The notes under the pieces were generated by a model. The model did not search any database, had not been told where the DNA came from, and was given only the letters and a program-made list of their open reading frames with translations. This document shows positions 4,105-28,645 of a DNA stretch of 64,000 nt, one piece after another. The first letter of the stretch is position 1. The number at the start of each line of letters is the position of its first letter. A program made the translations under genes and the position numbers. The stretch comes from an uncultured Alphaproteobacteria bacterium (GTDB lineage: Bacteria > Pseudomonadota > Alphaproteobacteria > RF32 > CAG-239), in NCBI GenBank assembly GCA_910587405.1, contig CAJUKS010000001.1:197325-261324 (forward strand), read 5' to 3'.

Positions 4105-4680
4105 ATGACCAAAGTCGCAATCTGGTGCCGTCATCAAGACGATAATGTTATCGGTATCGGGCCGAAAATCCCGTGGCATGTAAAGTCGGATTTTCAGCGG
4201 TTTCGCCGCATCACCGAAGGCCAAAGCCTGGTTGCGGGGCAGACGACCTACGAAAGTTTTCCCAACCGTACGCTTCCCAACCGCAAAATTTACGTGTTGA
4301 CGCTGGATGCGGCTTATCAGGTCTCTGATCCCGAAAAGCACGCTGTGGTTAACGACGTTAATTTGTTCAAGGAATGGGACGAGGATTTGTATATTGCCGG
4401 CGGTGCCACCGTTTATAAGCTGTTTATGACCGGCGGGGCCAAACTGATGCCGGAAATTGTGGTCGATTGTGTTTATCACGGCCCTCTTGATCCTGATGTT
4501 AAAGGTGAAAAGGTTTGCATAACTCCCTGTGTTGAAAGTTTAAATAAAAATTATCGGCAAATCTCCCGCGATTATGAGTTGGATCATATTACGACTCGAA
4601 TCCTGGTTCGTAAAGGAGAGTTTGTCGAACAGAACGTGCTTAAAAGAATTGTCAAAGCTATTGAAGAAGGACTGGATTGA
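4105..4680 (+). CDS. folA: Dihydrofolate reductase with a ~25-aa C-terminal extension
   Basis: IGxxxxIPW and [10 protein letters not shown] motifs are present. It overlaps thyA by 4 bp (ATGA), a typical folA-thyA coupling. Confidence 0.85.
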
Positions 4681-13106: not shown

Positions 13107-13156
13107 AAAAATGTTGCAAAATATTTCTTTACGGGCTAATTATAAGAAAACCCCGA

Positions 13157-13192
13157 CGGGACATAGCTCAGCCTGCCAGTCGCGCTTGCTTT
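13157..13192 (+). pseudogene. tRNA-Pro 5' pseudo-copy (acceptor and D-arm, then anticodon-arm 5' strand), truncated at the anticodon loop
   Basis: cgggacatagctcagcctg is identical to 13354..13372 of the intact tRNA. After 6 divergent nt, gcgcttgctttggg matches 13377..13390. The copy then runs into the 75-bp repeat unit. Confidence 0.55.
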
Positions 13193-13260
13193 GGGCTGGA
13201 GGAAGAAAAAACTTCCGGCGGAAGTTTTTTCGACGACAGGTGAAGTTTTGTTAAATTTAC
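13182..13260 (+). repeat. Direct repeat unit copy 1 (partner at 13501..13580)
   Basis: gcgcttgctttgggctggaggaagaaaaaacttccggNggaagttttttcgacgacaggNgaagtNttgtta. The two copies share about 75 nt with 3 mismatches. The unit contains an internal hairpin (aaaaaacttccgg/ccggaagtttttt). Confidence 0.6.
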
Positions 13261-13353
13261 GGCAGACGAAAGTCGGCTGTAAATTTTAGAAAACGAACAG
13301 GGCGAGCAAAGCCAGGGGGGGAGAGGAATTATTATAAAGTATAAAATTAATAA

Positions 13354-13430
13354 CGGGACATAGCTCAGCCTGGTAGAGCGCTTGCTTTGGGAGCAAGATG
13401 CCGATGGTTCGAATCCGTCTGTCCCGACCA
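13354..13430 (+). tRNA. tRNA-Pro (anticodon TGG)
   Basis: Cloverleaf: acceptor CGGGACA/TGTCCCG, anticodon stem CTTGC/GCAAG with loop TTTGGGA, T-loop TTCGAAT, encoded CCA. Confidence 0.9.
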
Positions 13431-13432
13431 GT

Positions 13433-13461
13433 AAAAAGCCGCCTGCAAAGGCGGTTTTTAT
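13433..13461 (+). terminator. Rho-independent terminator after tRNA-Pro
   Basis: aaaaagccgcctgcaaaggcggttttta. Confidence 0.5.
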
Positions 13462-13500
13462 TTTGTGTAAGGCATCTTGCTTCCATTTAGCAAAGCGTTT

Positions 13501-13580
13501 GCGCTTGCTTTGGGCTGGAGGAAGAAAAAACTTCCGGTGGAAGTTTTTTCGACGACAGGCGAAGTCTTGTTATTTTGCAA
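13501..13580 (+). repeat. Direct repeat unit copy 2
   Basis: See 13182..13260. Confidence 0.6.
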
Positions 13581-13664
13581 ACGAGCGGGAGCGAAGTTGG
13601 CAAAAGTTACAAGACAAGTGACCGCAGCGCATTAGCGATTGCCCAGAGGGCAGAGCTTATAAGC

Positions 13665-13740
13665 AAGAGAAGATGCCGATGGTTCGAATCCGTCTGTCCC
13701 GACCAGTAAAAAGCCGCCTGCAAAGGCGGTTTTTATTTTT
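13665..13740 (+). pseudogene. tRNA-Pro 3' pseudo-half (anticodon-stem 3' strand through CCA) plus a duplicated terminator
   Basis: gcaag[agaag]atgccgatggttcgaatccgtctgtcccgacca followed by gtaaaaagccgcctgcaaaggcggtttttatttt, identical to 13386..13461 except for a 5-nt insertion. There is no matching 5' acceptor strand upstream. Confidence 0.6.
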
Positions 13741-13762
13741 GTGGTTTTTAGGTGTATCAAAA

Positions 13763-13782
13763 AAACGTTCATTTTTTTGATA
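13763..13782. repeat. Left arm of a perfect 20-bp inverted repeat (aaacgttcatttttttgata)
   Basis: The reverse complement occurs at 13887..13906. The arms bracket 104 bp, and the right arm ends 27 bp before the autotransporter start codon. The left arm also sits inside a local palindrome (13755..13782). Confidence 0.6.
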
Positions 13783-13886
13783 TAGATAAATGTAGTCACT
13801 TGTTTTTTTGAAAAAAACAAACAAAAGTTCCAATTTCCGAGCCTTTGCGGTTGATTTAAAAATAAAATTATTATAGATTGACCACG

Positions 13887-13906
13887 TATCAAAAAAATGA
13901 ACGTTT
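13887..13906. repeat. Right arm of the inverted repeat (tatcaaaaaaatgaacgttt)
   Basis: Exact reverse complement of 13763..13782. Confidence 0.6.
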
Positions 13907-13933
13907 AAATGCATTTAGATAAGGATTGCGTGA

Positions 13934-16900
13934 ATGAATAAGCATATTTCTTGGGCAATTGCATTAACGGCGACCACTTTTTTGAGTGCGCCGGCGATTG
14001 CCGCCTCTCTAACCCCGACTTTGGATAATTTGAAATCGGAGGCCGGAACTGTTTTACCAACCATTACGGAAACCTATAACCTGACCGAGCTGAGCGGTGA
14101 TTTGCCGGAAGGCGCGGTGAAAGTGGAAATCGGCGACAAAGATTACTACTTTACGCCGATCGGCGATGATGCCGGCTTGTTGACCACTTTGGCCGGAACT
14201 TCGGCGGGAATGCTGAAGGAAAGCGCCGATGGTTTTTTTGAACTTGACGGCGTCAAGTATGGTTTTAATGTTGCGTCGATACCGGACAGTTCGTTTTCAT
14301 ACAGCGAAGGATCGGAAGATGACTATAATTTTACCGTGCAGGAAGCAGATGCAGAAGGCAAGCTGACAACCAAATATTATAAAATATCCCTGCTTCAGGA
14401 TAAATTCTCAACCGCCGGAAACATTTCTTGGGAAAAAGTGTCGGCTAAAGAAGCGGATACGGTCCAAGTTGATCTTCCCAACGGCGAAACTCAGTATTTT
14501 AAATATACTTATACCGATGATCCCAACCGGACCAAATACACTTCCACACAAACAAAGCTCACCGGTGACGTTGATGCCGATTTCGTACGTATTAAAAGAG
14601 GATTTAGCAAGGGCGGCGGTATAGAGAATAAAAATACGATTGACAGCGTTTCCGGCAATTTTATATACGATTATGCTCCCAATGGTGCCGGTGCCATTTA
14701 TAATGCGGGAACAATCGGAGATGTTAATGGTAATTTTGTTGCTAACTATACTGGTTTGGCCAGAGCCGATCAACTGGGACATGGCGGAGCAATTTATAAT
14801 GATAAAAACGCAACCATGGGTAACATTACCGGCAATTTCATCGGCAATATTGCCGGTCAGGCGCCGGGCAGCGGACGCGGCGGTGCCGTTCACAATGACA
14901 GAACGGCGACAATCGGTAACGTTTCCGGTCGTTTTATCGGCAATTCTGCCATGGGAAGCGGCGGTGCTATCAATAATGAAGGAACTCTCGGTAATATAAC
15001 TGCCGATTTCCTTTCCAACTCCTCTTCTGCGGGCGGGGCTATTTATAATCCGGGTGTCATCGGCGATATTGTCGGAGACTTTATTGCCAACTCTACCAGC
15101 GGGACTATGGGCGGTGCCATTTACATTTATAACGGAGGCGCCGGTCGTGTAGGCACGGTCGGCAATATTACCGGCAATTTTATTGCCAACTCCGCCCAAA
15201 GGGAAGGCGGCGCTATTGCCAACGAGGGAATTATCGGCAAAATTGAAGGCGATTTTATCGGCAACAGCGGTGCTATTTATAACGGCGGCATGGGAACTAT
15301 TACGGAAATTGTCGGCAATTTCGTCAATAACTCGAGTAAAGAAGAAGGCGGGGCGATTAGAAATCATAATAAGGTTTTTAATATTACCGGTAACTTCATT
15401 GCCAACTCGGCTGAAAAAGACGGGGGGGCAATTTTTAGCGATATAAGTAAAACCGTCGGCGATATTGACGGGGACTTTATCGGTAACTCGGCCAAAGGAA
15501 ACGGCGGCGCAATCTATAATCAACGGAATGTGACCGTCGGAAAAATCAACGGCAGTTTTATTGACAACTCTGCTACAGTCGGCGGTGCGGTGTATACGCC
15601 GGTCAATATGACTTTTGCATCGGGTTCGGACGTCCATTTTATGTCGGGGAACTATGCCGAAGATGCAACCCGCGGGAAAGTTTACAATGCGGTGTATGGT
15701 TCGGGAACACCGGTGATCACCTTTGATACCACCGGCGGCGGCGCGTGGGCAATCAACGACAATATGGAAGGCGGTAATTATGTTTTCAAAGGTGACGATA
15801 CCGTTAACGCCGATACCGGTACCACGACGCAATATGTGGCGATCAACAACGATCTTGTCAATGCTGCCGATGTTCAGGTTGAAAATACCACTTTGCGTTT
15901 CGGCGCTTATGAGCACGACGACCAAACGGCCAAAAACTGGGACGGCAAGGGCGCGTTTGTTGCCTCGCTGAACGCTGACGGCACTGCCAACCGCGATGCT
16001 GATGCGGTGACCGTTTTGTCGTTGAACAACGCGGTGTTCGATCTTGCCAACGGCTATCTGGATGTAGTGAAACTGAAAGGTTATTCGGCAACCGACAGCT
16101 TTATGCATATCGACGTTGATCCCGACAATATGAAAGCCGACGAACTGCATGTTGCCGGTGATGTTGAAGGGGTGACCAAGCTGATCGTTCATGCTTCGTC
16201 CGATGCCGACATCCGCGGCAAAGGCGAGATTTTGTTTGCAGAATCGGAAAACGACACCACCGGTAACGAGGGTTCGTTTGTGGTCTCGCGCGTTTACAAG
16301 AGCCCGTATCTGTTTGACGTCAACTATACGCAACGGGCCGAGAACAGCAATCAGTGGGGCTTGACCATGAATAACGAAGAGAATCCGGACAAGTATGTTG
16401 AACCGGAAGAACCGGACGTTCCGGATGTCCCTGATGTTCCTGACGTTCCGACGCCATCGGTTGATTATCGTAAAGTGGCACCGGAGGTGATGGCTTATCA
16501 GGGACTGCCGGTAGCGGCGTTAGAGCAGACCAAAGGCATGATCGGCAACATCAGCCGCCAGGTTCAGGGACGTCGTTTCTACTGCCCGGGCTGCGGCTTC
16601 TATGACAGCTACTGGAACGGTCAGGCGTTCAATACCCTGTGGGCGAACGCGGTTTACCAAACTTCGGAAAACGAAGCGTTGGTCAATGTTGATGCCGACG
16701 TCTGGGGCATTGAAGCCGGCGGCGACCTGCAACATGATCTCAACAACAAGCTGGGTCTGTTCCTGTCTTACCGCAAGGGTAATTACGACATGAACGGCGA
16801 CGGCAAGCATCATTACTCGACCGTTGGATCTGAGATTGACATTGATTCGTATCTGGCCGGTTTGTATTACCGTTATGACCGTAACAACTGGTGGACTTTT

Positions 16901-17419
16901 GCCACCGTATACGGCGGCATTCAGAGAGTTGATCTGAAGACCAAAGACGGCATCAAGTCGGATACCGACGGTACCGAGTTCGGCGGCAGCGTTGAGTTGG
17001 GTTATGACTATGCGATCAACAAAACCCTGTACCTGACCCCGAGTGTCGGCGCCTTCTATACTCAGGTTGATTACGACGACGCCACCGACAGTGCCGGCAA
17101 GATTGCGAAGTACAACACCTTGCGTCAGTTGGAGTTGGAAGCTGGCGTTAAACTGACGAAGGCGTTTGTAATGGACGAAGGCTATGCCAACGTTTACGTC
17201 AAACCGAGTGTTGTACAAACCATTGCCGATGGCGACGAAGTTCGGATCACCGGTTTGGGCAAAGTCAGCACCTTGGATGACCAGACGCTGGGCCGGATTG
17301 AACTCGGCGGCCGCTACGGCTTCACCGAACAGTTGTCGGCCTACGGTTGGGCCAACCACACCTTCGGCGACGACTACAAAGCCTCGACCTTCGGTTTGGG
17401 TCTCAGCTACAGCTGGTAA
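13934..17419 (+). CDS. Autotransporter outer-membrane protein with Chlamydia Pmp-type passenger repeats (GGAI / FxxN)
   Basis: 1161 aa. The N-terminus has a signal peptide. The passenger carries about 15 reiterations of GNFI(A/G)NS...GGAIYN. A PEEPDVPDVPDVPDVP linker precedes a C-terminal beta-barrel translocator ending ...GLGLSYSW (terminal aromatic). A terminator lies at 17443..17475. Confidence 0.8.
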   Translation: MNKHISWAIALTATTFLSAPAIAASLTPTLDNLKSEAGTVLPTITETYNLTELSGDLPEGAVKVEIGDKDYYFTPIGDDAGLLTTLAGTSAGMLKESADGFFELDGVKYGFNVASIPDSSFSYSEGSEDDYNFTVQEADAEGKLTTKYYKISLLQDKFSTAGNISWEKVSAKEADTVQVDLPNGETQYFKYTYTDDPNRTKYTSTQTKLTGDVDADFVRIKRGFSKGGGIENKNTIDSVSGNFIYDYAPNGAGAIYNAGTIGDVNGNFVANYTGLARADQLGHGGAIYNDKNATMGNITGNFIGNIAGQAPGSGRGGAVHNDRTATIGNVSGRFIGNSAMGSGGAINNEGTLGNITADFLSNSSSAGGAIYNPGVIGDIVGDFIANSTSGTMGGAIYIYNGGAGRVGTVGNITGNFIANSAQREGGAIANEGIIGKIEGDFIGNSGAIYNGGMGTITEIVGNFVNNSSKEEGGAIRNHNKVFNITGNFIANSAEKDGGAIFSDISKTVGDIDGDFIGNSAKGNGGAIYNQRNVTVGKINGSFIDNSATVGGAVYTPVNMTFASGSDVHFMSGNYAEDATRGKVYNAVYGSGTPVITFDTTGGGAWAINDNMEGGNYVFKGDDTVNADTGTTTQYVAINNDLVNAADVQVENTTLRFGAYEHDDQTAKNWDGKGAFVASLNADGTANRDADAVTVLSLNNAVFDLANGYLDVVKLKGYSATDSFMHIDVDPDNMKADELHVAGDVEGVTKLIVHASSDADIRGKGEILFAESENDTTGNEGSFVVSRVYKSPYLFDVNYTQRAENSNQWGLTMNNEENPDKYVEPEEPDVPDVPDVPDVPTPSVDYRKVAPEVMAYQGLPVAALEQTKGMIGNISRQVQGRRFYCPGCGFYDSYWNGQAFNTLWANAVYQTSENEALVNVDADVWGIEAGGDLQHDLNNKLGLFLSYRKGNYDMNGDGKHHYSTVGSEIDIDSYLAGLYYRYDRNNWWTFATVYGGIQRVDLKTKDGIKSDTDGTEFGGSVELGYDYAINKTLYLTPSVGAFYTQVDYDDATDSAGKIAKYNTLRQLELEAGVKLTKAFVMDEGYANVYVKPSVVQTIADGDEVRITGLGKVSTLDDQTLGRIELGGRYGFTEQLSAYGWANHTFGDDYKASTFGLGLSYSW

Positions 17420-17795: not shown

Positions 17796-18761
17796 ATGAA
17801 GACAATACTTATTACGGGCGGAACCGGCTTTTTGGGCGCTAACTTGTGCCATCGGTTGATTGGTGAAGGACAGCGGGTTATCTGCGTAGACAATAATTAC
17901 ACTGGGCGCCTTTCGAATATTAAGGATATTCTGAATCATCCTAATTTTAGATTTATTAACCACGATATCTGTCAGCCGCTGGAAGTCGACGAACATTTGG
18001 ACCAGATTTATAACATGGCCTGTCCGGCAAGTCCGCCCGCCTATCAGGGCAAACACTCGATCACGACAACAAAAACCTGTGTGTTGGGGGCGATCAATAT
18101 GTTGGAATTGGCTAAAAAACATCACGCAACCATTTTACAGACCTCCACTTCCGAAGTTTATGGCGAACCGCTGGTTCACCCTCAGGTGGAAACATATCGC
18201 GGAAACGTCAATCCCAACGGTATCCGTGCCTGTTATGATGAAGGGAAACGATGCGCCGAGAGTCTGTTTTTTGATTATTGGCGTCATGAAGGGGTGGATA
18301 TTAAGGTTATCCGTATTTTCAACACCTACGGCCCCTATATGGATCCGAATGACGGCCGGGTTGTCAGCAACTTCATTTGTCAGGCCTTGCGCGGCGAGGA
18401 TATCACGATTTACGGCGACGGTCATCAGACCCGTTCGTTTTGTTATGTTGACGATTTGATCGAAGCAATGGTGAGGATGATGAACAGCCCCAAAGATTTT
18501 CAAGGGCCGGTTAATACCGGAAATCCCGGGGAGTTTACAATTCGGGAACTGGCGGAAATGGTGGTTGCAAAAATCGGCTGCGGTTCAAAAGTTGTTTATA
18601 TGGGATTGCCGAGTGATGATCCGACCCAGCGTCGGCCGGATATTACGCTGGCGCGCGCCAGATTGGGCTGGGAACCCCGGATCAAGCTCAGCGAAGGACT
18701 TGACAAGACTATTGAATATTTTCGCAAAGAAATAACCGCGGTAGCGGTTGCTGCCGAATAG
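17796..18761 (+). CDS. uxs: UDP-glucuronate decarboxylase (UDP-xylose synthase), SDR family
   Basis: 321 aa with GGTGFLG Rossmann, YxxxK, and UXS-like ...EVYGEP...YDEGKR motifs. Confidence 0.75.
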
Positions 18762-18838
18762 CGGATCTGAAAAAGCCGGAATGAGCTTTCGTTCCGGCTC
18801 AACTGCAAAACGACGTCTACTAAGGAGAAGAAAGACTA

Positions 18839-19807
18839 ATGATACTGGTGACAGGCGGTGCCGGATATATCGGCTCTCATACGGTAAGGCACTTGCTGCA
18901 AAAAGGATATGAATGTGTGGTCGCCGACAATCTGGTGTACGGACACCGGGAAGCGGTGGCACCGGAGGCTCGGTTTGAAAAGGCCGATTTACTGGAGACG
19001 GAAAGTCTCAAAAAGATATTCAAAAAATATGAAATAGATGCGGTTATTCATTTTGCCGCTTTTGCTTATGTCGGCGAAAGCATGGAAAACCCGCAAAAAT
19101 ATTATCGCAATAATGTGGTCGGAACGCTGAATTTGCTCGAAGCCATGAGGGCGGCGTCTGTTGATAAAATCGTTTTTTCGAGCACTTGTGCGACTTATGG
19201 CGAACCCCAACGGCTGCCGATTGACGAAACGCATCCGCAAAAGCCGATCAATCCCTACGGGCGTTCCAAATTGATGATTGAACAAATTTTCGAAGATTAT
19301 CGCCGGGCTTACGGACTGAATTATATTTGTCTGCGTTATTTTAACGCGGCCGGTGCCGCGGCCGACGGGCAGATCGGGGAAAGCCATATGCCCGAAACCC
19401 ATCTGATTCCGCTGGTACTCAAAGCCGTCAAAGGGGAAAGAGAATGCGTGAAGGTATTTGGAACCGATTATGATACGGCGGACGGCACCTGTGTTCGCGA
19501 TTATGTTCATGTGGAAGATCTGGCCCAGGCGCATCGACTGGCGCTGGAAAAAGTCGGTGTTGTCAGCGGCTGTTTCAATTTGGGAACAGGAACCGGTACC
19601 AGCGTGCACGAAATTATTGCGGCAGCCGAGCAGGCAAGCGGCCGTAAATGTCCGGTCGAATATGCGGCGCGCCGTGCCGGAGATCCTGCCCGACTGTATG
19701 CAGACAGCCGCAAAGCCCGCGAAGTTTTGGGCTGGGTGCCGGTATATGATTCAATCGGCAAAATCATTAAATCGGCATGGCAATGGGAAACAAACAGGAA
19801 GTATTAA
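18839..19807 (+). CDS. galE: UDP-glucose 4-epimerase
   Basis: 322 aa with GGAGYIGSH, the YGRSKLMIE catalytic YxxxK, and GalE-typical DGTCVRDYVHVEDLA. Confidence 0.9.
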   Translation: MILVTGGAGYIGSHTVRHLLQKGYECVVADNLVYGHREAVAPEARFEKADLLETESLKKIFKKYEIDAVIHFAAFAYVGESMENPQKYYRNNVVGTLNLLEAMRAASVDKIVFSSTCATYGEPQRLPIDETHPQKPINPYGRSKLMIEQIFEDYRRAYGLNYICLRYFNAAGAAADGQIGESHMPETHLIPLVLKAVKGERECVKVFGTDYDTADGTCVRDYVHVEDLAQAHRLALEKVGVVSGCFNLGTGTGTSVHEIIAAAEQASGRKCPVEYAARRAGDPARLYADSRKAREVLGWVPVYDSIGKIIKSAWQWETNRKY

Positions 19808-19808
19808 A

Positions 19809-20948
19809 ATGCGCAAAGTACAAAATTTGATTGTCGGCTGCGGTTTGTCCGGCATGGTGTTGGCAGAAAGAATAGCTTCGCAGCTTGGAGAAGAAGTGCT
19901 GGTGATTGACAAAAGGGACCATATCGGCGGCAATATTTACGATTATAAAGATTCGTCCGGCGTGACCGTCCATAAATACGGTCCGCACGTGTTTCATACC
20001 AGATATAAAGAAGTGTGGGATTATCTGAGCCGTTTTACCGACTGGCACTATTTTATGTACCGGGTTAAGGCTGTTATAGACGGCGAAGAAGTCAATATTC
20101 CGTTTAACCTTGACAGTCTTTATAAAGTGTTTCCGCACAAATTGGCAACGGACCTGGAAGCCAAATTGATTAAAAAATTCGGGTTCAATCACAAAGTGCC
20201 GATTTTGCAATTGCGCGAAAGCCGGGATCCCGATTTGGAATTTTTGGCAGAGTATGTCTATCAAAAGGTTTTTTTAGGTTATACGATAAAGCAGTGGGGG
20301 GTTACGCCGGAAGAACTTGATCCTTCGGTCAGCGGAAGAGTTCCGGTATACGTCAGCCGTGACAATCGTTATTTTCAGGACAAATATCAGGCCATACCCG
20401 CGCGCGGTTATACCGAAATGGCGCAGAATATGCTGAATCATCCGCTGATCCGGGTTGAACTGAACACCGATTTTGCCGATATTCGCGAAAAAACGTTATA
20501 TGAGCGGTTGTTTTACTCGGGACCGATTGACGAGTTCTTTTCTTTTGAACTGGGAAAGCTTCCTTATCGCAGTCTGGATATCCGTTTCAGGCGGTTTGAC
20601 CGGGAATATTATCAGAGCGGGCCGCAAATTAATTATCCCGAAAACTACGATTTTACCCGCAGTGTCGAATATAAGTATTATTTGGGAGAGGAAACCGCGC
20701 AGACAGTGATCTCGGAAGAATATTCCCAGCCCTATATATCCGGAAAAAACGAACGGTACTACCCGGTTCCGGATCAGAAAAATCAAGAACTGTACGACAA
20801 ATACCGGCGGAAGGCGGCAGCCTGTCCGAATGTGTATTTTGTCGGACGTTTGGGAGACTATAAGTATTATAACATGGACGAAACCGTAAAAAGAGCGTTA
20901 GAATTGTATGAAAGGATTGAAACGAATGAAGTGCGAAAAGTCAGTTAA
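19809..20948 (+). CDS. glf: UDP-galactopyranose mutase
   Basis: The internal Met (MRKVQNLIVGCGLSGMVLAERIA) gives a GxGxxG FAD-binding N-terminus. The overall match is to Glf at about 379 aa. The track ORF from 19458 is an in-frame upstream extension that overlaps galE. Confidence 0.88.
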   Translation: MRKVQNLIVGCGLSGMVLAERIASQLGEEVLVIDKRDHIGGNIYDYKDSSGVTVHKYGPHVFHTRYKEVWDYLSRFTDWHYFMYRVKAVIDGEEVNIPFNLDSLYKVFPHKLATDLEAKLIKKFGFNHKVPILQLRESRDPDLEFLAEYVYQKVFLGYTIKQWGVTPEELDPSVSGRVPVYVSRDNRYFQDKYQAIPARGYTEMAQNMLNHPLIRVELNTDFADIREKTLYERLFYSGPIDEFFSFELGKLPYRSLDIRFRRFDREYYQSGPQINYPENYDFTRSVEYKYYLGEETAQTVISEEYSQPYISGKNERYYPVPDQKNQELYDKYRRKAAACPNVYFVGRLGDYKYYNMDETVKRALELYERIETNEVRKVS

Positions 20949-22923
20949 AATTTTGGTCGGCTGCCACAAACCGGCAGTGTTGTTGAAATCGGAAGTTTTG
21001 GTGCCGATACATCTGGGGCGGGCGCTCGGAACCGGTTTTTCGAAAGACGGGATGATCAACCGGGCCAATTATCAATGGATGATTGATCATATGATCGGCG
21101 ACGACACCGGTGACAACATCTCGATCGAGAACCGTTATTTGAATGAGCTGACAGCGATTTACTGGGCATGGAAGAACCAGGATCAGCTCGGCAATCCGGA
21201 TTATATCGGCTTTATGCATTATCGCCGTCATTTGTCGTTTAATCTCAACAAAAAGTTCAACAGTACCAAATACGGGGTTGTAGAAGAACAAAAAATCGAC
21301 GACGAGTACATAAGCAAATATCATCTGGACGATTTTAACATCACCAACGTTGTTTGCCGTTATGACGTAGTGGTTGCCGAACGGACCGATTTGAAAAAGC
21401 TCGGAACCCTGACGCCGTACAATCACTATGAAAATTCGGAAAAGAAGCTGCATATCAAAGATTATGAAAGGGTGCTTGACATCCTTAACCGGAAATATCC
21501 CGAATATGCGGAAGACGCGGTCAGTTACAATAACGGTGACCATGCCTTTTTTACCAACGTTTTTGTCATGAAAAAAGACATTTACAATCGGTATTGCGAA
21601 TGGTTGTTCGATATTTTGGGCGAAGCTCGGGAGCAGGTTGACATTTCCGGTTATAACGTTCAGGAAGCCCGGGCGCTGGCCTATATTGCGGAGTGGCTTT
21701 GCGGAATTTACATCACCCGCTTAATACGCGAAGGTTATAAGGTTTGCGAATTGCAGGAAACCCTGGTATACGATACCGATATTTTGCCCGAAATCAAACC
21801 GGCTTTTGCACAAAATAACATTCCGGTCTGTTTGTCTACCGACGAAAACTATGTTTTGTATACCGGGGTGGCGGTGCAGTCGATTATTGACAATGCGAGT
21901 GAGCGGTATAACTATGACATCATTATTCTTGCCAAAGGCGTTCCTCCGGCGGAACGGAGCAAACTTTTGCAGCTGATTGCCGGGCGGGACAATTTCAGCA
22001 TTCGTTTCGTCGATATCCAAAAATATATCAGCAAGGTTATGAGCGGTTTGTTCTTTACTGCCGCGCATTTTTCCGAAGCCGTTTATTATCGGATTTTCAT
22101 TTCCAAAATTTTAACCGGTTATGACAAGGTTCTGTATATTGATTCGGATTTGGTCGTGACCGAAGATATTGCCAACCTCTATCATGAGGATATCAAAGGT
22201 GAGGCGTTGGGGGCGGTGATTGATACCGAAATTATCCGTATGTATCACAATGACGTTAATATCACCGCCTATGTCGACAAAACTTTAGGCTTAAAAACCC
22301 CGGCGTGTTATTTTAATTCCGGAGTGTTGATCATGTCGCTGGAAAAAATCCGCACTTATGATCTGGAAGAACGTTTTATTGCGGTAATGAGCCGGATTAA
22401 GTCGCCTTACATGGTGGATCAGGATATTCTGAATGTAATTTTTGAGGGTGACGTTCATTTTCTGGACGGTGCATGGAACTATGAATACCATCTGCCGATC
22501 TGGTCTCCGGATTATGCGGATCAGCTGCCGTTTGAGACGCTGGCGGTTTATCAGAAGAGCAGGGAAAATGCCAAGATTGTTCATTTTGCAGGTTCCAAAA
22601 AGCCGTGGCGTTATCCTCAGTATGACATGGCCGGCTGGTTTTGGAAATATGCCCGCCGGACGCCTTTTTACGAAGAAATCCTGTTTCGCAATCTTTCAAT
22701 GCCGCAAGTGAAAGAAGTAAAAGAAATCAAAGAAAAAGTCGGTTATGTGGACGATTATTTGTTGACAAAACTGAAATATGCCAAATATAAATTGTTGTCA
22801 AAAATTATGTTCGGGCGCAAAAGAAAAATGTGTCGTCAGAAAAGAAAAGAGCTGAAAAGAGAACTGAAGCGGATAAAGGGCTGCTATCGGATGCAGGAAC
22901 AAAACGCGCAAAAAGCGGCCTAG
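20926..22923 (+). CDS. Two-domain glycosyltransferase: N-terminal DUF4422-like domain plus C-terminal GT8 (RfaJ/WaaI-like)
   Basis: The C-terminal half has the GT8 DxD (YIDSDLVV) and ...YFNSGVLIM...DQDILN motifs. The N-terminal ~280 aa is a separate domain. A basic tail KYKLLSKIMFGRKRK... closes the protein. Start chosen at MKCEK, which has an RBS (aagga). Confidence 0.7.
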   Translation: MKCEKSVKILVGCHKPAVLLKSEVLVPIHLGRALGTGFSKDGMINRANYQWMIDHMIGDDTGDNISIENRYLNELTAIYWAWKNQDQLGNPDYIGFMHYRRHLSFNLNKKFNSTKYGVVEEQKIDDEYISKYHLDDFNITNVVCRYDVVVAERTDLKKLGTLTPYNHYENSEKKLHIKDYERVLDILNRKYPEYAEDAVSYNNGDHAFFTNVFVMKKDIYNRYCEWLFDILGEAREQVDISGYNVQEARALAYIAEWLCGIYITRLIREGYKVCELQETLVYDTDILPEIKPAFAQNNIPVCLSTDENYVLYTGVAVQSIIDNASERYNYDIIILAKGVPPAERSKLLQLIAGRDNFSIRFVDIQKYISKVMSGLFFTAAHFSEAVYYRIFISKILTGYDKVLYIDSDLVVTEDIANLYHEDIKGEALGAVIDTEIIRMYHNDVNITAYVDKTLGLKTPACYFNSGVLIMSLEKIRTYDLEERFIAVMSRIKSPYMVDQDILNVIFEGDVHFLDGAWNYEYHLPIWSPDYADQLPFETLAVYQKSRENAKIVHFAGSKKPWRYPQYDMAGWFWKYARRTPFYEEILFRNLSMPQVKEVKEIKEKVGYVDDYLLTKLKYAKYKLLSKIMFGRKRKMCRQKRKELKRELKRIKGCYRMQEQNAQKAA

Positions 22924-22989
22924 CCGGTGCGGAACTGAAAAAGTGTTTTTTCTGGCATAAACTTTGTTGACTTTGAAAAAGGGAAAAAA

Positions 22990-24051
22990 ATGGCTGAAAT
23001 TTCGGTTATCATTCCGGTTTACAATGCCGGGCAATATATTGAAAAATGTTTGGACGCCTTGTGCAGGCAGACTTTTTCCGACATCGAAATATTGTGCATC
23101 GATGACGGTTCGAGCGACGATACCTGGCAGCATATTGCAAAACATGCTGCCGAAGACAAGCGGATCAGGGCATGGCGACAGCAGAACGCCGGTCCGGCAG
23201 CGACGCGAAACCGCGGGTTGCAAAATGCCTCCGCCCCTTATATTATGTTTTGTGATGCCGACGACTGGTATGAGCCGGACTTTTGTCGACGAATGCTCGA
23301 AATTATGAAGACGGAAGATACCGATACGGCGGTAGCCTGCTGCCATGTGGTGGTGGAAGATTGCGATTGCGCCGAGCGGGAAATTTCCGAAAGTCATTAC
23401 AATTCGTCGTTAAGCGGTCGTTTTGCAATGACGGACAGGCTTTGTCAACGAACCTCGGTCGTGTTGTGGAACAAGATATTCAAGAAAGAGCTGATCGATC
23501 GTTACGGCATTTGTTTTCCGGAGGGGTGCGAGCATGACGACGATGTGTTTTGGACGTTGTACGGCATGGTGTCAAAGAGCGTTTATTTTGAAAAACAAAA
23601 GCTCTACAATTATCGTATCCGTCCCAATTCGATCATGAGCAATTACTTTAACCGTAAGCCGAAGGACAAATACGACCGCTTGAAGGTAAGCCGTTTTGTT
23701 GTCGAATTTTGGCGTCGGGGGCAATTGCCGGCGGAAAAACGGGCGGCCGTATCCGATTTTTGCCGCACCCAGATCAGCATTATGTTTTTTGACCTGTTTT
23801 CGCCGGAAGAACTGGAACAGATCGTCGCCGAAGCCAACCGGATGGAGTTGGATTATTGTTTTGCCATCCGCAAAGGCAAAATTTTCATGGCGCAAAGGGA
23901 AGGTTTGGAAGAGGCCGGACGGATAAAACTGTTGAAATATATTTTGCTGTCTAAATTGACGTTTGGCTCTAAACGGAAAATATATAAACAGGAAAAGAAA
24001 ACCGTGCGCAACCAGCTGCGGATGAAAAAACTGCTCGGCAGGGCCGTGTAG
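22990..24051 (+). CDS. Family 2 glycosyltransferase
   Basis: ISVIIPVYNAGQYIEKCLDALCRQTFSDIEILCIDDGSSDDT, a DxD and the GT-A fold. The C-terminal tail KYILLSKLTFGSKRK... parallels the upstream GT8. Confidence 0.85.
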   Translation: MAEISVIIPVYNAGQYIEKCLDALCRQTFSDIEILCIDDGSSDDTWQHIAKHAAEDKRIRAWRQQNAGPAATRNRGLQNASAPYIMFCDADDWYEPDFCRRMLEIMKTEDTDTAVACCHVVVEDCDCAEREISESHYNSSLSGRFAMTDRLCQRTSVVLWNKIFKKELIDRYGICFPEGCEHDDDVFWTLYGMVSKSVYFEKQKLYNYRIRPNSIMSNYFNRKPKDKYDRLKVSRFVVEFWRRGQLPAEKRAAVSDFCRTQISIMFFDLFSPEELEQIVAEANRMELDYCFAIRKGKIFMAQREGLEEAGRIKLLKYILLSKLTFGSKRKIYKQEKKTVRNQLRMKKLLGRAV

Positions 24052-24056
24052 GCTTT

Positions 24057-25457
24057 TTATCTTTCCCGCATGCTTTCGTCAAGGTATTTCATCAACGGCG
24101 AGAGCAGATATTCGATAACGCGGCGTTTGCCGGTTTTGATCTCGGCGGTGATGCTCATCCCCGGTTTGAGCCGTATGGTTTTGCCGTCGGCGCGGATGGT
24201 GTTGTCGCTGAGAGTCAGGCGTGCGGCAAAGATCAGCCCCAGTTTTTCGTCTTGGACGGCGTCTTCGGAAATTTGGCGGACTTTTGCCTTGACGGTGCCG
24301 TATTTGGTAAAGGGAAAACTGTCGATTTTGATTTCTACCGGCTGGTTTGGGCGCACAAAACCGATATCTTGGTTTAAAATCATGACTTCGGCCTCAAGCT
24401 TATAGTTTTCGGGGACCAAGTTCATGATCGGTTTGGCGGCTTCGACGACGCCTCCGTGCGTATGATAGGCCAACTGTTGAACATAGCCTGATACCGGAGC
24501 TTTGACGACGGTGCGTTTCAGTGCCTGTTGATATTTGATCAATTCCTGCCGGTACGATTCCAGTTTTTCGCTGCTTTCGGTCAGTTCCTGAGCCAGGTTG
24601 CGGTCAAATTCGGCCAGATATTGCGCGGATTGTTTCTTAAAATATTTGATGTTTTCTTCGGTTTCGGCCATTTTCTTCATCTGAACGTTTCTCTGTTCCT
24701 GCAGGTTGGTCAGTTCTTCTTCCTGTTCCAAAAAAGTGAGCCGGGCGAGCAGTTGCTTGTCGACCAATATTCTTTTTTTGTCAATGCGTTCGCGCACACT
24801 TGGCAAAAGCCTGTCAATCCGGTTCAGTTCGGCGGCAATCGTGTCTTTTTCTTTTTCGGCTTTGTCAATCTGACCTTGCAGAACTTCTTTTTGTGCATTT
24901 TTTTCGGCGATCTGACTTTTGAGCAGATTCTGGTGGATACGCACCAGGTCTGAGTGGGTATGGTCGCGATAGTCAAAATTTGCGAGCGGATCGCCGCTTA
25001 ACATTGCTTGGAGGCGGGCAACCGAAATTTCCAATCCCGTGATTTCGTTTTGAATTCGGTTGATGTTGGCCTGCACTTCGGTTTGATCAAATTTGATCAG
25101 CTTCTGACCCGCTTCAACGTATTGTCCTTCCTGAACGTAGATTTGTTCGATTTCGCTGTCCTGAAGGGTTTGGACGGTTTTGATGTTTGAGGCCGGAAGA
25201 AGTTTTCCCGGTGCGGTGGCAATGATGTCGATTTTGCCGCAAAACGACCATACGGCAAAAACGGCAAACATCAGCATAATGCCCCAGCCAAGCAATCTTG
25301 CGGCCGGAGAGGGCGACGTTTCTGTAATTTCGAGGACCGCGGGCAGAAATTCTCTTTCGAGGCAGTTCATGTTTTTGATTCTGTCGGTTGAGGCGTTTTT
25401 CTCCTGTAATAAGGCGAGACGGACAATTTCCGCATATTTTTTTATTTGGTTCAGCAT
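24057..25457 (-). CDS. hlyD: HlyD-family type I secretion periplasmic adaptor (membrane fusion protein)
   Basis: The start is set at MLNQIKKY, 4 nt after the hlyB stop. It has an N-terminal TM, a long coiled-coil and a C-terminal beta domain. Confidence 0.9.
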   Translation of the reverse strand: MLNQIKKYAEIVRLALLQEKNASTDRIKNMNCLEREFLPAVLEITETSPSPAARLLGWGIMLMFAVFAVWSFCGKIDIIATAPGKLLPASNIKTVQTLQDSEIEQIYVQEGQYVEAGQKLIKFDQTEVQANINRIQNEITGLEISVARLQAMLSGDPLANFDYRDHTHSDLVRIHQNLLKSQIAEKNAQKEVLQGQIDKAEKEKDTIAAELNRIDRLLPSVRERIDKKRILVDKQLLARLTFLEQEEELTNLQEQRNVQMKKMAETEENIKYFKKQSAQYLAEFDRNLAQELTESSEKLESYRQELIKYQQALKRTVVKAPVSGYVQQLAYHTHGGVVEAAKPIMNLVPENYKLEAEVMILNQDIGFVRPNQPVEIKIDSFPFTKYGTVKAKVRQISEDAVQDEKLGLIFAARLTLSDNTIRADGKTIRLKPGMSITAEIKTGKRRVIEYLLSPLMKYLDESMRER

Positions 25458-25461
25458 CGGC

Positions 25462-27615
25462 TTACTCCGCAGCGTTTGTTGTTTCGGCCGTATCGCTCTG
25501 ACAGTTCCACAAATGGGCATAGCGGCCGCCGCGTTTTAACAGTTCCGGATGGGTTCCGGTTTCGGTAATTTTCCCTTTTTCGACGGTTATGATGCAATCG
25601 CAGTCGCGGACGGCAGACAGCCGGTGGGCGATGACAAATACGGTTCGGTCGCGGCAGATCGACGCCATGTTTCGGCGGATAATTTTTTCGGATTCATAGT
25701 CAAGGGCCGAAGTTGCCTCGTCGAAAATCAAAATGCGCGGATTGTTGACCAAAGCGCGGGCAATGGCAATCCGTTGGCGCTGACCGCCCGAAAGCGATGC
25801 GCCCCGTTCTTCAATCAGCGTGTCATATCCTTGCGGCAGTTCGGTGATAAAGTCGTGAGCCCCGGCCAGCTTGGCTGCCGCCATAACTTTTTCGGCAGAA
25901 ACCGCGGGGTTGGTAAGGGCGATGTTTTCGCGTACCGTTTTGTTAAACAAGAAATTTTCCTGCAAAACGACGCCGATTTGGCGCCGCAGCCAGGCAACGT
26001 CGACGGTGGAAATGTCGATGCCGTCAATTAAAACCTTGCCGCTTTCGGGAATATAGAGACGTTGAATAAGCTTGGTAATCGTAGATTTTCCCGATCCGCT
26101 GGGGCCGACAAAACCGATCTTTTGCCCGGCGCCGGCCTTAAAATTGATTTTTTTGAGAATCTCCGGCCCGTTAGGAAGATAACGAAAAACAATGTCGCGA
26201 AATTCGACTTCCCCGCGGATGGCGGGGAGACTGCCTTTGGATACGTTTTGGTTGTCTTCGGCCGGATTGTTAAGAATATCCGAAAGTTTTTCAATGGATA
26301 TCTTTGCCTGCTGAAAGTTTTGCCATAGTTGCGAAAGCCTGAGGATCGGCTGGGTAACGCGCCCGGAGAGCATATTGAACGCAATCAGCTGGCCGACCGA
26401 CAATTCACCTTTCATGACCAACGAAGCGCCGATCCACAATGTCAGGGCCATCGTGATTTTTTGTATCAATTGTACCAGTTGCCCGGCAATGTTGTTAATG
26501 TGCGAAGCGCGAAAAGAAGAGCCGACGTAAGCCGCCAACTGTTGTTCCCAACGGCGTTGCATTTGCGGTTCAACGGCCAACGACTTGACGGTTTCGACCC
26601 CGGAGACCGCTTCGACAAGAAAACACTGGTTTTCGGCGCCGCGGCGGAAACGTTCGTCGATCCGGGAGCGCAACAAGGGGGTGAACAACAGCGACAAAAC
26701 GATATAAAAAGGGATAGACAGCAGAACGATTAACGTTAATGTTGCCGAATAGAAAAACATGACGGTGAAAAAGACCAGGGTAAAGAAAAAATCGATCATC
26801 AGCGTGAGAGCGGAACCGGTAAGGAAACTGCGGATATTTTCCAGCTCGTGCACGCGGGCAACCGTATCGCCGACCCGTCGGGCACCGAAGTAGGCCAACG
26901 GCAGATGAATGAGATGTTTGAAAAGTCCGGCGCCCAATTCGACGTCAATCCGGGTTGTGGTATGGGAAAAGGTGTAAGTGCGCAAGGCGCCGAGAAGCGT
27001 TTCGAAAACGGAAATGCAAATCAAGGCCACCATTAAAACGTCGAGGCTGGACAGTCCGCGATTGACCAAAACTTTATCAATAACGACTTGAAACAGCAGC
27101 GGCGAGATCAGGGCAAAAAGCTGCAAAAAAAACGAAGCCAGAAGCACTTCGCCGAACAGACGCCGGTATTTGACCACGGCGGGAATAAACCACGAAATGT
27201 CAAATTTGCGGTTTTTGCCGCTGAGAAAGTCGCGGCAGGTCATCAGCAACAGCCTGCCGTTCCATTTTTGCAAAAATTGTTCTTTGCTTAAGATTTGCGG
27301 ATGATTTCCCGATTGCGGGTCCTGAATCAATACTTTGTCGGAAGTTGTACGCCCGATGACGAAATAGGTTCGGTCGTCGGCTTGGGCAATTGCCGGAAGA
27401 GTTATCTTATCGAGCCGTTCCCAGTCGGTTTGAATAAATCGGGCCTTGAAAGAAAATTCTTTGGCCAGTTGCAGCAGTTCGTATTCTTCAAAATGTGAAG
27501 TCCGGCGGTCGTATTTATGCTTAATTTGGTCGATGGAGATCGGTTTTTCAAAATAGTTGGCGAGAATTGCAAAACAGGCTAAACCGGTGTCAAGTGCAGG
27601 AAGATGCGTCGTCAT
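25462..27615 (-). CDS. hlyB: HlyB-like type I secretion ABC exporter with a non-catalytic C39-like N-terminal domain
   Basis: 717 aa with a six-TM domain, Walker A GPSGSGKST, an LSGGQRQR signature and Walker B ILIFDEATSALD. The N-terminal domain reads DTGLACF, with Thr where a C39 peptidase has its catalytic Cys. This makes it a C39-like domain, typical of RTX-substrate transporters. Confidence 0.9.
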   Translation of the reverse strand: MTTHLPALDTGLACFAILANYFEKPISIDQIKHKYDRRTSHFEEYELLQLAKEFSFKARFIQTDWERLDKITLPAIAQADDRTYFVIGRTTSDKVLIQDPQSGNHPQILSKEQFLQKWNGRLLLMTCRDFLSGKNRKFDISWFIPAVVKYRRLFGEVLLASFFLQLFALISPLLFQVVIDKVLVNRGLSSLDVLMVALICISVFETLLGALRTYTFSHTTTRIDVELGAGLFKHLIHLPLAYFGARRVGDTVARVHELENIRSFLTGSALTLMIDFFFTLVFFTVMFFYSATLTLIVLLSIPFYIVLSLLFTPLLRSRIDERFRRGAENQCFLVEAVSGVETVKSLAVEPQMQRRWEQQLAAYVGSSFRASHINNIAGQLVQLIQKITMALTLWIGASLVMKGELSVGQLIAFNMLSGRVTQPILRLSQLWQNFQQAKISIEKLSDILNNPAEDNQNVSKGSLPAIRGEVEFRDIVFRYLPNGPEILKKINFKAGAGQKIGFVGPSGSGKSTITKLIQRLYIPESGKVLIDGIDISTVDVAWLRRQIGVVLQENFLFNKTVRENIALTNPAVSAEKVMAAAKLAGAHDFITELPQGYDTLIEERGASLSGGQRQRIAIARALVNNPRILIFDEATSALDYESEKIIRRNMASICRDRTVFVIAHRLSAVRDCDCIITVEKGKITETGTHPELLKRGGRYAHLWNCQSDTAETTNAAE

Positions 27616-28286
27616 AGACTAAACCTTGGGTAGATTAATTATAAAAATTAGCTTAAAAGTATTTGTAAAAATGTCAATTATTTTAATCATAGATTGTGCT
27701 TCGGTTGATAACTCTGCCGACTCTGTTTTTCATCTTTTATATAATAAAATATATCTTGCCCTGTACTCCGAATCTTTTGTTCATTGATAACAAGCTAAAT
27801 TTTACTAAAAACAATTTTTATGCGAATGAAAATCTTTTTTACATCCTATAGTAAGTTAAATAATTGAATGTTATACACAAAGTTGTATTTTTTATTTAAA
27901 AAATAGAGACAAATAAAAATATGCAATTATTATTTGATCGTAGATAATGATCTGTAATTGCTTGAGTATAGGAATAATAAGTATGAAGAAAATCTCGGCT
28001 GACCCTTCTTTAAAAGATGTTTCCGTATCAACCGAAACCGAAGCTAAATCACCGACCGGTGATTCCAAAAACAAGAACACGTTGCATTTTAGTGATGCAA
28101 ATACTAACGAAAATAAAAAATCGATGGATATTCCGATTTCTTATAACGAATATAATCTGCACGAAGCAATTACAACCGATAAAAGCGGAGAACTGAAAGA
28201 CTTGGTTCGCAAGTTTTTACAATTGTCGGATTTATTGAATTGTTTGTTGTTATCGATTTTGTGGAATTTGGCCTGATTGAGCCTTT

Positions 28287-28330
28287 GTTACTCATCGGGG
28301 TTTATTTTGGTCATGACGGAAACGGTTTTT
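28287..28330 (+). repeat. Diverged ~45-bp fragment of the RTX gene (matches 32797..32842)
   Basis: ggggtttattttggtcatgacggaaacggtttttgggga versus agtttattttgaccatgacggaaacggttttcgggaaaa. Confidence 0.45.
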
Positions 28331-28645
28331 GGGGAAATATTTGTGTCTCGTGAAGGCCGAGTCGCGTGAAAAATACATTTTTTTTGAAGACAGTTGCGGA
28401 AAGCAGCTGTTTTTTTTACAAATTAGTAATATTTTTTTAAAAAAAATTCTACTAAAGGTGGTGAAACTTTTTAGTGTAGCGCTTTTTTATATTTCTGAAA
28501 ATATTAGGAAAAAATAAACAGTTAATACACAATAATAAGTTGTGATGTTTTTAACTGATAATAATAGTTGTATTTTTCTATTGATAATATCTATTAAAAA
28601 TTGCACCATACTTAAAGTGGTAAGGAAATAATAAAAAGAAATAGC

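Follow-up and report, generated by a model that had tools for sequence, protein, structure and literature searches.

We analysed a window of 64,000 nucleotides from an uncultured Alphaproteobacteria bacterium (GenBank assembly GCA_910587405.1, contig CAJUKS010000001.1, positions 197,325 to 261,324), in which the gene of a Pmp-like autotransporter adhesin is preceded by a short segment of DNA between inverted repeats. This segment is probably an invertible promoter (inverton) by which the adhesin is phase-varied, and a member of a multi-locus switch family in uncultured alphaproteobacterial metagenome-assembled genomes (MAGs). An initial annotation of the sequence had proposed such a switch. 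The proposal is supported by the presence of a promoter-like module in all 11 loci compared, by spacers that occur in both orientations between genomes, and by a paralogous locus that is flipped in otherwise identical assemblies. Invertible promoters as a kind are well known; the points of interest are a multi-locus regulon without a linked recombinase, the very short segments, and sites that are hix-like but longer.

Two inverted sites upstream of the autotransporter gene

A repeat search recovered the 20-bp inverted repeat on which the proposal was based. Its arms (13763-13782 and 13887-13906) are 100% complementary and 104 nt apart, and the right arm ends at 13906, leaving the reported 27 nt to the ATG of the open reading frame (ORF) 13934-17419. 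A search for further copies of the 20-mer, which had been suggested, returned just the two arms within the 64 kb with up to 3 mismatches allowed. The chance expectation is 0.04, and 0 of 100 shuffled sequences gave two. The inverted repeat thus lies immediately upstream of the gene, as in known invertons, and is not due to chance. Searches of the 64 kb for extra copies of the 20-mer, the half-site, the centre motif and an A7-N6-T7 palindrome gave only the known sites or matches at chance level. In metagenomes, about 30 of the 37 matches to the 20-mer were unrelated chance matches, and two scans of viral contigs for a phage origin of the sites gave 0 matches.

The left arm was said to lie in a local palindrome, and this palindrome is indeed present (28 bp, 13755-13782, TATCAAAAAAACGTTCATTTTTTTGATA). 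It seems to be two 28-bp sites, rather than the bare 20-mers, that form the functional units. The predicted distal recombination site (13755-13782, unstranded), which holds the left arm, is an 11 + 6 + 11 palindrome, TATCAAAAAAA-CGTTCA-TTTTTTTGATA, with TT at its centre (13768-13769). The predicted proximal recombination site (13887-13914, unstranded) holds the right arm and reads TATCAAAAAAA-TGAACG-TTTAAATGCAT, with AA at its centre (13900-13901). It shares the inner arm with the distal site and has the hexamer reversed (TGAACG); its outer half, TTTAAATGCAT, is degenerate, yet kept in every locus. Since the centres read TT and AA, the two sites are inverted relative to each other, with their centres 132 bp apart. 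The predicted invertible segment (13769-13900, unstranded) runs over these 132 bp from centre to centre and consists of the two inner half-sites and a 104-bp spacer (13783-13886).

The spacer also contains a T7-G-A7 palindrome, TTTTTTTGAAAAAAA (13803-13817), which is present as well in the orthologous locus L010 (see below). Along with the four A7/T7 tracts present in the sites, this palindrome might cause a bend in the DNA that favours synapsis over a distance of only 132 bp.

Predicted promoter module and proposed mechanism

Within the spacer, a promoter-like module on the plus strand (13851-13879) consists of a -35 element TTGATT (13851-13856), 17 nt, and a -10 element TAGATT (13874-13879), followed after 7 nt by the inner half-site from 13887. 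The module faces the autotransporter gene, and we call this the ON orientation. Its promoter activity and its transcription start are predicted from the sequence. What remains of the conserved 5' leader beyond the right arm (13907-13933, plus strand) includes a ribosome-binding site AAGGA at 13921-13925, and the leader sequence AAATGCATTT[A/T]GATAAGGATT is conserved at all homologous loci. Directly upstream of the switch lies an intrinsic terminator (13709-13739, plus strand), a terminator-like GC-rich hairpin (13709-13734) followed by a T-run. Because of this hairpin, the adhesin gene probably depends on a promoter within the segment. The terminator presumably insulates the gene from upstream read-through, which would make the OFF state truly off.

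We propose that a recombinase encoded elsewhere in the genome would bind the two 28-bp sites, each being composed of two A7/T7-GATA half-sites around a 6-bp centre. Strand exchange at the site centres (TT 13768-13769 and AA 13900-13901) would flip the 132 bp between them. In the orientation of the window, the promoter (-35 at 13851, -10 at 13874) would fire across the proximal site and produce an mRNA leader of about 47 nt (ON). After inversion the promoter would face the upstream terminator and a region of tRNA fragments, and the gene would be left without a promoter behind the terminator (OFF). The OFF junctions expected of the window copy would be TTTTTTTGATA-CGTGGTCAATC and CATTTATCTA-TATCAAAAAAA.

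Inverted repeats can also act by folding, and the repeat might work as a long-range hairpin in RNA or single-stranded DNA, for example as an attenuator, processing site or cruciform. The region does fold with a 20-bp stem (minimum free energy -24 kcal/mol, z = -3.8), but such folding is expected of any inverted repeat. Moreover, the predicted promoter lies between the arms, which places the left arm outside the mRNA, and a terminator is found just upstream. No Rfam family reaches threshold in the region with gathering or E-value settings, the spacer sequence is not conserved between the classes described below, and its orientation varies. We regard the probability of this explanation as negligible.

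Homologous loci in other genomes

The two-site architecture and the conserved leader were found upstream of paralogous autotransporter genes at nine loci from MAGs and metagenomes (L007, L009, L011, L031, L039, L044, L052, L059 and L060), always in the order distal palindrome, spacer of 90-104 bp, proximal site, conserved leader. Together with the window and L010, an orthologue from a related MAG with 89% protein identity, the same structure and the ON orientation, these are the 11 two-site loci compared here. A distal-type palindrome was seen at 10 loci besides the window, and a diverged version of the architecture is present at L061. Relatives that share the 20-mer are the uncultured Azospirillum sp. 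UMGS149 and the uncultured Alphaproteobacteria bacterium MGBC103387; we take UMGS and MGBC to denote MAG catalogues of the human gut and the mouse gut, respectively. The upstream regions of two further paralogues, P0005 and P0020, are unrelated and have no sites, showing that the switch is not universal within the gene family.

The sites of these loci follow common rules. Their centres are either 130-132 bp or 118-119 bp apart, and the central dinucleotides of the two sites are compatible (TT/AA or AT/AT) at each of the 11 tabulated two-site autotransporter loci, including the window, the AT centre being that of L059 and L060. The inner dinucleotides of the site centre co-vary, as CA/TG or, in L060, as CG/CG. 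Between the window and L010 there are 0 differences in the 56 bp of both sites and 12 in the 104-bp spacer, of which 2 fall in the promoter half.

All 11 two-site loci contain, in one orientation each, a module of the form TTGAnn, 16-18 nt, TAnnnT, 7 nt, TA[T/G]CA6+. This geometry is kept though the spacers split into classes that can barely be aligned with each other. At three loci (the window, L010 and L059) the module is directed at the gene; at the other eight it is directed away, and faces terminators or the 3' ends of neighbouring genes and no gene start.

Within the right arm of the window, we noticed a three-codon mini-ORF, ATG AAC GTT TAA (13897-13908), whose start and stop are retained in variant sites (ATG AAC CTT TAA in L011 and ATG ATC ATT TAA in L059). 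In the ON state the mini-ORF would be part of the mRNA leader and precede the true start codon by about 25 nt. It may owe its presence to the conservation of the site alone.

Inversion at a paralogous locus

The gene at L011 is the paralogue P0013. Both P0013 and the window gene are carried by the MAGs GCA_948673285.1, GCA_949043995.1 and GCA_948687565.1. It follows that the genome of the window contains at least two switches, which are in opposite states (ON and OFF). Several dispersed switches with a common repeat in one genome, an arrangement of the Mpi type, are thus represented by the window locus and the P0013 locus; in addition, L007 and L009 lie on two contigs of one MAG, MGBC103387, and L044 and L052 come from one metagenome.

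The initial annotation had suggested looking for both orientations of the segment. This was done in assemblies, and both were found at the P0013 locus, whereas the window copy was ON only. The orientation at P0013 was scored in ten assemblies, each with a 60-nt flank. Nine of the ten were OFF (...cgacatttatccaTAGCAAAAAAATGAACC) and one was ON (...tacactaaaaatgTATCAAAAAAATGAACC; L083, GCA_949423765.1). L083 differs from the other P0013 assemblies at only 12 positions in 3,177 nt, all of them among the first 16, and its first 63 nt are exactly those obtained by inverting L011 in silico between the site centres. The stretch that is identical between the arms at this locus is only 14 nt long, too short for a mistaken inversion by a k-mer assembler, so that a site-specific event is the best explanation. 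A stretch of 14 nt is also too short for efficient RecA-dependent recombination. In the family, and in the same species, both orientations therefore occur in natural populations.

Spacers of different loci show the same pattern. The window spacer aligns with that of L011 only as the reverse complement (55/84) and with that of L059 in the forward direction (54/79), and the spacers of L011 and L059 align in reverse (55/64). Among the homologous spacers, that of L059 is ON and those of L011, L039, L044 and L060 are OFF. A variant inner half-site, with GCTA for GATA, is always found at the promoter-distal end of the spacer, whichever direction the spacer has. The variant thus travels with the spacer, as expected if the inner half-sites belong to the invertible segment.

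The initial annotation had offered a second reading, in which the repeats are two operators for a dimeric transcription factor, possibly with DNA looping, at a fixed promoter and without any rearrangement. A near-perfect palindrome such as that of the distal site would suit a dimeric DNA-binding protein, the proximal site overlaps the predicted transcription start, which is a typical position for a repressor, and there is no recombinase gene nearby. However, a pair of operators fails to explain why the promoter faces away from the gene, toward no gene start, at 8 of the 11 loci, or how a single locus can have opposite orientations in assemblies that do not otherwise differ (L083). Spacings of 118-119 or 130-132 bp also do not correspond to a constant number of helical turns, unlike those of a fixed loop. 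We therefore consider an operator pair improbable; it is possible that a recombinase also represses transcription when bound to the sites.

Probable loss and exchange of the promoter segment

Two sequences orthologous to window positions 13700-13940 lack exactly the 132-bp block: L005 (the orthologue in Azospirillum sp. UMGS149, approximately 4170-4440) and L026 (from a metagenome, 1-290). They retain the proximal site alone, right after the same upstream terminator, and in the window the block is bounded by a 12-bp direct repeat, GTATCAAAAAAA. We read this state as a probable deletion between the direct repeats by which the switch was removed. The L005 allele appears to be without a promoter and would be permanently off or differently expressed.

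Another pair of loci, L039 and L031, are alike in the flanks beyond the distal site (177/199, 89% identity) and in the genes (about 81% identity over 300 nt), whereas the spacers (102 and 90 nt) belong to different classes and cannot be aligned. Promoter cassettes therefore seem to have been swapped between loci, which would be possible by double recombination at the flanking sites.

The same observations could suggest that the 132-bp block is a small mobile insertion, resembling a miniature inverted-repeat transposable element or a mobile promoter cassette, whose ends together with a duplicated target create the inverted repeat: the window has exactly 132 bp more than L005 and L026, with a direct repeat at the boundaries, and orthologous flanks such as those of L039 and L031 can hold unrelated spacers. 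Transposition, however, leaves the inversion in place unexplained. As the two-site architecture is common to paralogues in several genomes, a deletion is the simpler account of the one site left in L005. No further copies are present within the 64 kb, and each copy that was found is placed before an autotransporter gene, with a fixed spacing to the start codon. A mobile insertion is in our view very improbable.

A class-1 spacer switch was also observed in L025 (1-2321), before a different autotransporter with Pmp repeats and another leader. Its site centres, CGATCA and TGAACG, are incompatible (AT vs AA), which suggests a locked copy.

Orientation of the window copy

Several observations weigh against an invertible promoter at the window locus. 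The window copy is ON in 11 of 11 cases, namely in the window and in 10/10 independent assemblies whose 300 upstream bases show 0 mismatches, so that both orientations were not seen for this copy; these ten assemblies (which include L001 and L002, with longer flanks) were chosen by their identical protein and are consensus sequences of an apparently near-clonal strain, in which the majority state alone is seen and minority orientations would not show. The promoter-like module agrees with the sigma-70 consensus at only 8 of 12 positions and is below the threshold of a generic promoter scan. The segment (118-132 bp in the family) is shorter than those of well-studied switches. Finally, a serine or tyrosine recombinase was found neither in the 64 kb (Pfam search of 42 ORFs; tblastn with Hin and XerD) nor in about 620 kb of homologous loci (tblastn with Hin, gamma-delta resolvase, XerD and FimB, E<=1); the initial annotation had recommended that such an enzyme be looked for in the genome. 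The Hin and XerD queries used on the window gave no match below E 0.28. PF00239 and PF00589 were likewise absent from the neighbour lists of the homologous loci.

The uniform orientation could mean that the window copy is a relic locked in the ON state, in other words that the family inverts and this copy, with a fixed promoter between fossil sites, no longer does. The orthologue L010 is ON too, and members of the family do decay, as in L005 and L026, which lost the 132-bp block, and in L025 with its incompatible centres. On the other hand, the arms of the window copy are perfect (20/20), better than the 14-nt identical stretch of the paralogue that flips. The absence of substitutions in the sites compared with L010, against 12 in the spacer, argues for continuing selection on the sites. 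In addition, a metagenome contig of the same species (L047) stops exactly at 13782, the inner edge of the left arm. Its break point is suggestive of the branch in the assembly graph that is expected if both orientations are present. A locked copy is thus unlikely, but of the alternatives to an active switch it is the one that we take most seriously. From the perfect sites, their strict conservation and the behaviour of the paralogue, we infer that the window copy inverts as well.

Recombinase and comparison with known systems

Because no recombinase was found in the 64 kb or in the homologous loci examined, an unlinked enzyme presumably acts on the sites. It may be of either class: the Din-like sites favour a serine recombinase, and the 11 + 6 + 11 geometry of the distal site and the matching hexamers favour a tyrosine recombinase. 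In favour of the serine type, the central dinucleotide is the one part that is compatible in every pair of partner sites tabulated. In favour of the tyrosine type, the two hexamers match completely when aligned in inverted orientation, both in the window and at L011, where flipping was observed; in L031, L007, L009, L039 and L059 their outermost position does not match. Tyrosine core sites (Xer, Cre or RecV type) have two inverted binding arms around an overlap region of 6-8 bp that the partner sites share; in the proximal site, the outer arm resembles the others only poorly.

The sites of the Din family (hix, gix and mix) are 26 bp long, with one strongly conserved and one degenerate half around a 2-bp crossover (PMC3241671). 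Examples are hixL, TTCTTGAAAACC AA GGTTTTTGATAA, and mix, ...AA CGTTTTTATGCC (PMC3241671, Table 3). Written in the same way, the distal site of the window is TATCAAAAAAATG AA CGTTTTTTTGATA and the proximal site ...ATG AA CGTTTAAATGCAT. An AA centre, an adjacent CGTTT and a T-run followed by GATA are common to both groups, and here too the central dinucleotide is the same in both partner sites (TT/AA) in inverted alignment. The sites described here differ in that the palindrome is 28 bp, or about 30 bp with flanking bases, instead of 26 bp (12 + 2 + 12), in that GATA is 2 bp further from the centre in each half, and in the AT centre of some members (L059 and L060). Furthermore, Din invertases, which work with a Fis-bound enhancer, are encoded beside or inside segments of >=1 kb, whereas the segment of 132 bp is too short for a gene and no invertase is encoded in the 64 kb.

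In Bacteroides fragilis, many dispersed short promoter segments with related inverted repeats control surface structures, and a recombinase acts on distant loci (PMC4747536, PMC10403206, PMC5386303). Mpi, Tsr0667 and Tsr19 are recombinases of B. fragilis that serve such distant, dispersed switches (PMC4747536). Similarly, at least two loci in one genome share their sites here, one of them ON and one mostly OFF, with no recombinase nearby. The core of the Mpi repeat, presumably ARACGTWCGT, would agree at 9 of 10 positions with AAACGTTCAT from the arm in the window. The differences are the host, which belongs to the Alphaproteobacteria, the cargo of autotransporter adhesins instead of capsule loci, the shorter segments of 118-132 bp, and the promoter, which is predicted to be of the sigma-70 type instead of having the Bacteroides -7 motif (PMC4747536).

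The flagellar switch of Clostridioides difficile, flipped by RecV, is 154 bp long, is flanked by 21-bp inverted repeats, and came to light through a comparison of genomes that are alike save for the direction of this segment (PMC5386303). It resembles the window locus as a short switch upstream of genes for a surface structure, and one unlinked recombinase serves several switches, that of cwpV among them (PMC5386303). RecV is a tyrosine recombinase and its switches have no consensus (PMC5386303), whereas the sites described here are near-identical between loci. The flagellar switch also acts in the 5' untranslated region after transcription initiation, whereas here the promoter appears to be inside the segment. 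With fimS of Escherichia coli, the analogy drawn in the initial annotation, the window locus has in common an invertible promoter that controls an adhesin. fimS is 314 bp long, has 9-bp repeats and is inverted by the tyrosine recombinases FimB and FimE, which are encoded immediately adjacent to it. In contrast, the window locus has no adjacent recombinase, and its sites are longer and palindromic.

Invertible promoters have been surveyed across phyla (PMC11602134). We found no published account of phase variation in these alphaproteobacteria or of alphaproteobacterial autotransporters under such control. A wider model, which we put forward only tentatively, is a global surface-variation system like that of Mpi, in which one unlinked invertase of a new subfamily would act on hix-like sites of about 30 bp that bracket cassettes of 118-132 bp before a family of Pmp-like autotransporter genes, and in which the cassettes would be exchanged between loci by recombinase-mediated cassette exchange. 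As each cassette is bracketed by two sites, such exchange would explain why orthologous loci carry different spacer classes.

The autotransporter gene and its surroundings

The gene controlled by the predicted switch (13934-17419, plus strand) encodes a classical type Va autotransporter of 1161 aa with a Pmp-type repeat passenger and, as read from the sequence, an N-terminal signal peptide. Pfam identified the autotransporter beta-domain PF03797 (E 7e-31) and Chlam_PMP, PF02415 (E 9e-6). The protein has 1284 homologues at E<=1e-20, and proteins identical to it occur in many MAGs, e.g. GCA_948673285.1.

Upstream of the gene, an intact tRNA-Pro(TGG) (13354-13430) is surrounded by partial tRNA copies (13156-13739). 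The 5' half of a tRNA is found at 13156-13195, and a 14-mer that ends at the anticodon, GCGCTTGCTTTGGG, is present in three copies, at 13182, 13378 and 13501, of which the first and third continue into an unrelated stretch of about 60 nt that is the same in both. The 3' half and the terminator are duplicated 275 bp apart (13395-13464 and 13670-13739, 100% identical). Assembly L001 holds one more of the 275-bp units than the window, and the contig of L002 stops in the tRNA-repeat region. The region looks as if an element had integrated at the anticodon loop and then left remnants or been amplified in tandem. Rfam has no match there other than the tRNA, and no array was detected by TRF.

The adhesin gene is directly followed by a polysaccharide cluster (17796-24051) with two NAD-dependent epimerases/dehydratases, a UDP-galactopyranose mutase, and DUF4422/GT8 and GT2 glycosyltransferases. 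L010 carries other genes after the adhesin, so that the junction between the adhesin and the downstream genes is variable among relatives. A type I secretion locus follows (24057-38057), with genes for an HlyD-family protein (24057-25520) and an ABC transporter with a C39 peptidase (25462-27615). Adjoining these is the gene of a 2447-aa RTX protein (30714-38057) with 18 HemolysinCabind stretches. A stretch of low GC content (approximately 32% GC, 28-32 kb) takes in the beginning of the RTX gene and three ORFs (28646-30701) for which Pfam gave no match. The Pfam families found in the 42 ORFs scanned include those of the housekeeping genes alaS, rpoD, dnaG, mfd, recG and recJ, of the polysaccharide genes and of the type I secretion/RTX locus. 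The window also contains a permuted alpha-type tmRNA, which marks the organism as an alphaproteobacterium.

Implications

The defined 28-bp sites provide a handle for finding the recombinase. As a compact natural switch, the very short segment with A7/T7 tracts in its sites may also interest synthetic biologists. The orientation of the switches could be scored in existing metagenomes and related to the state of the host or to immune or phage pressure. If our interpretation is correct, alphaproteobacteria that are known only from MAGs would show stochastic variation of their surface like that of Bacteroides and C. difficile.
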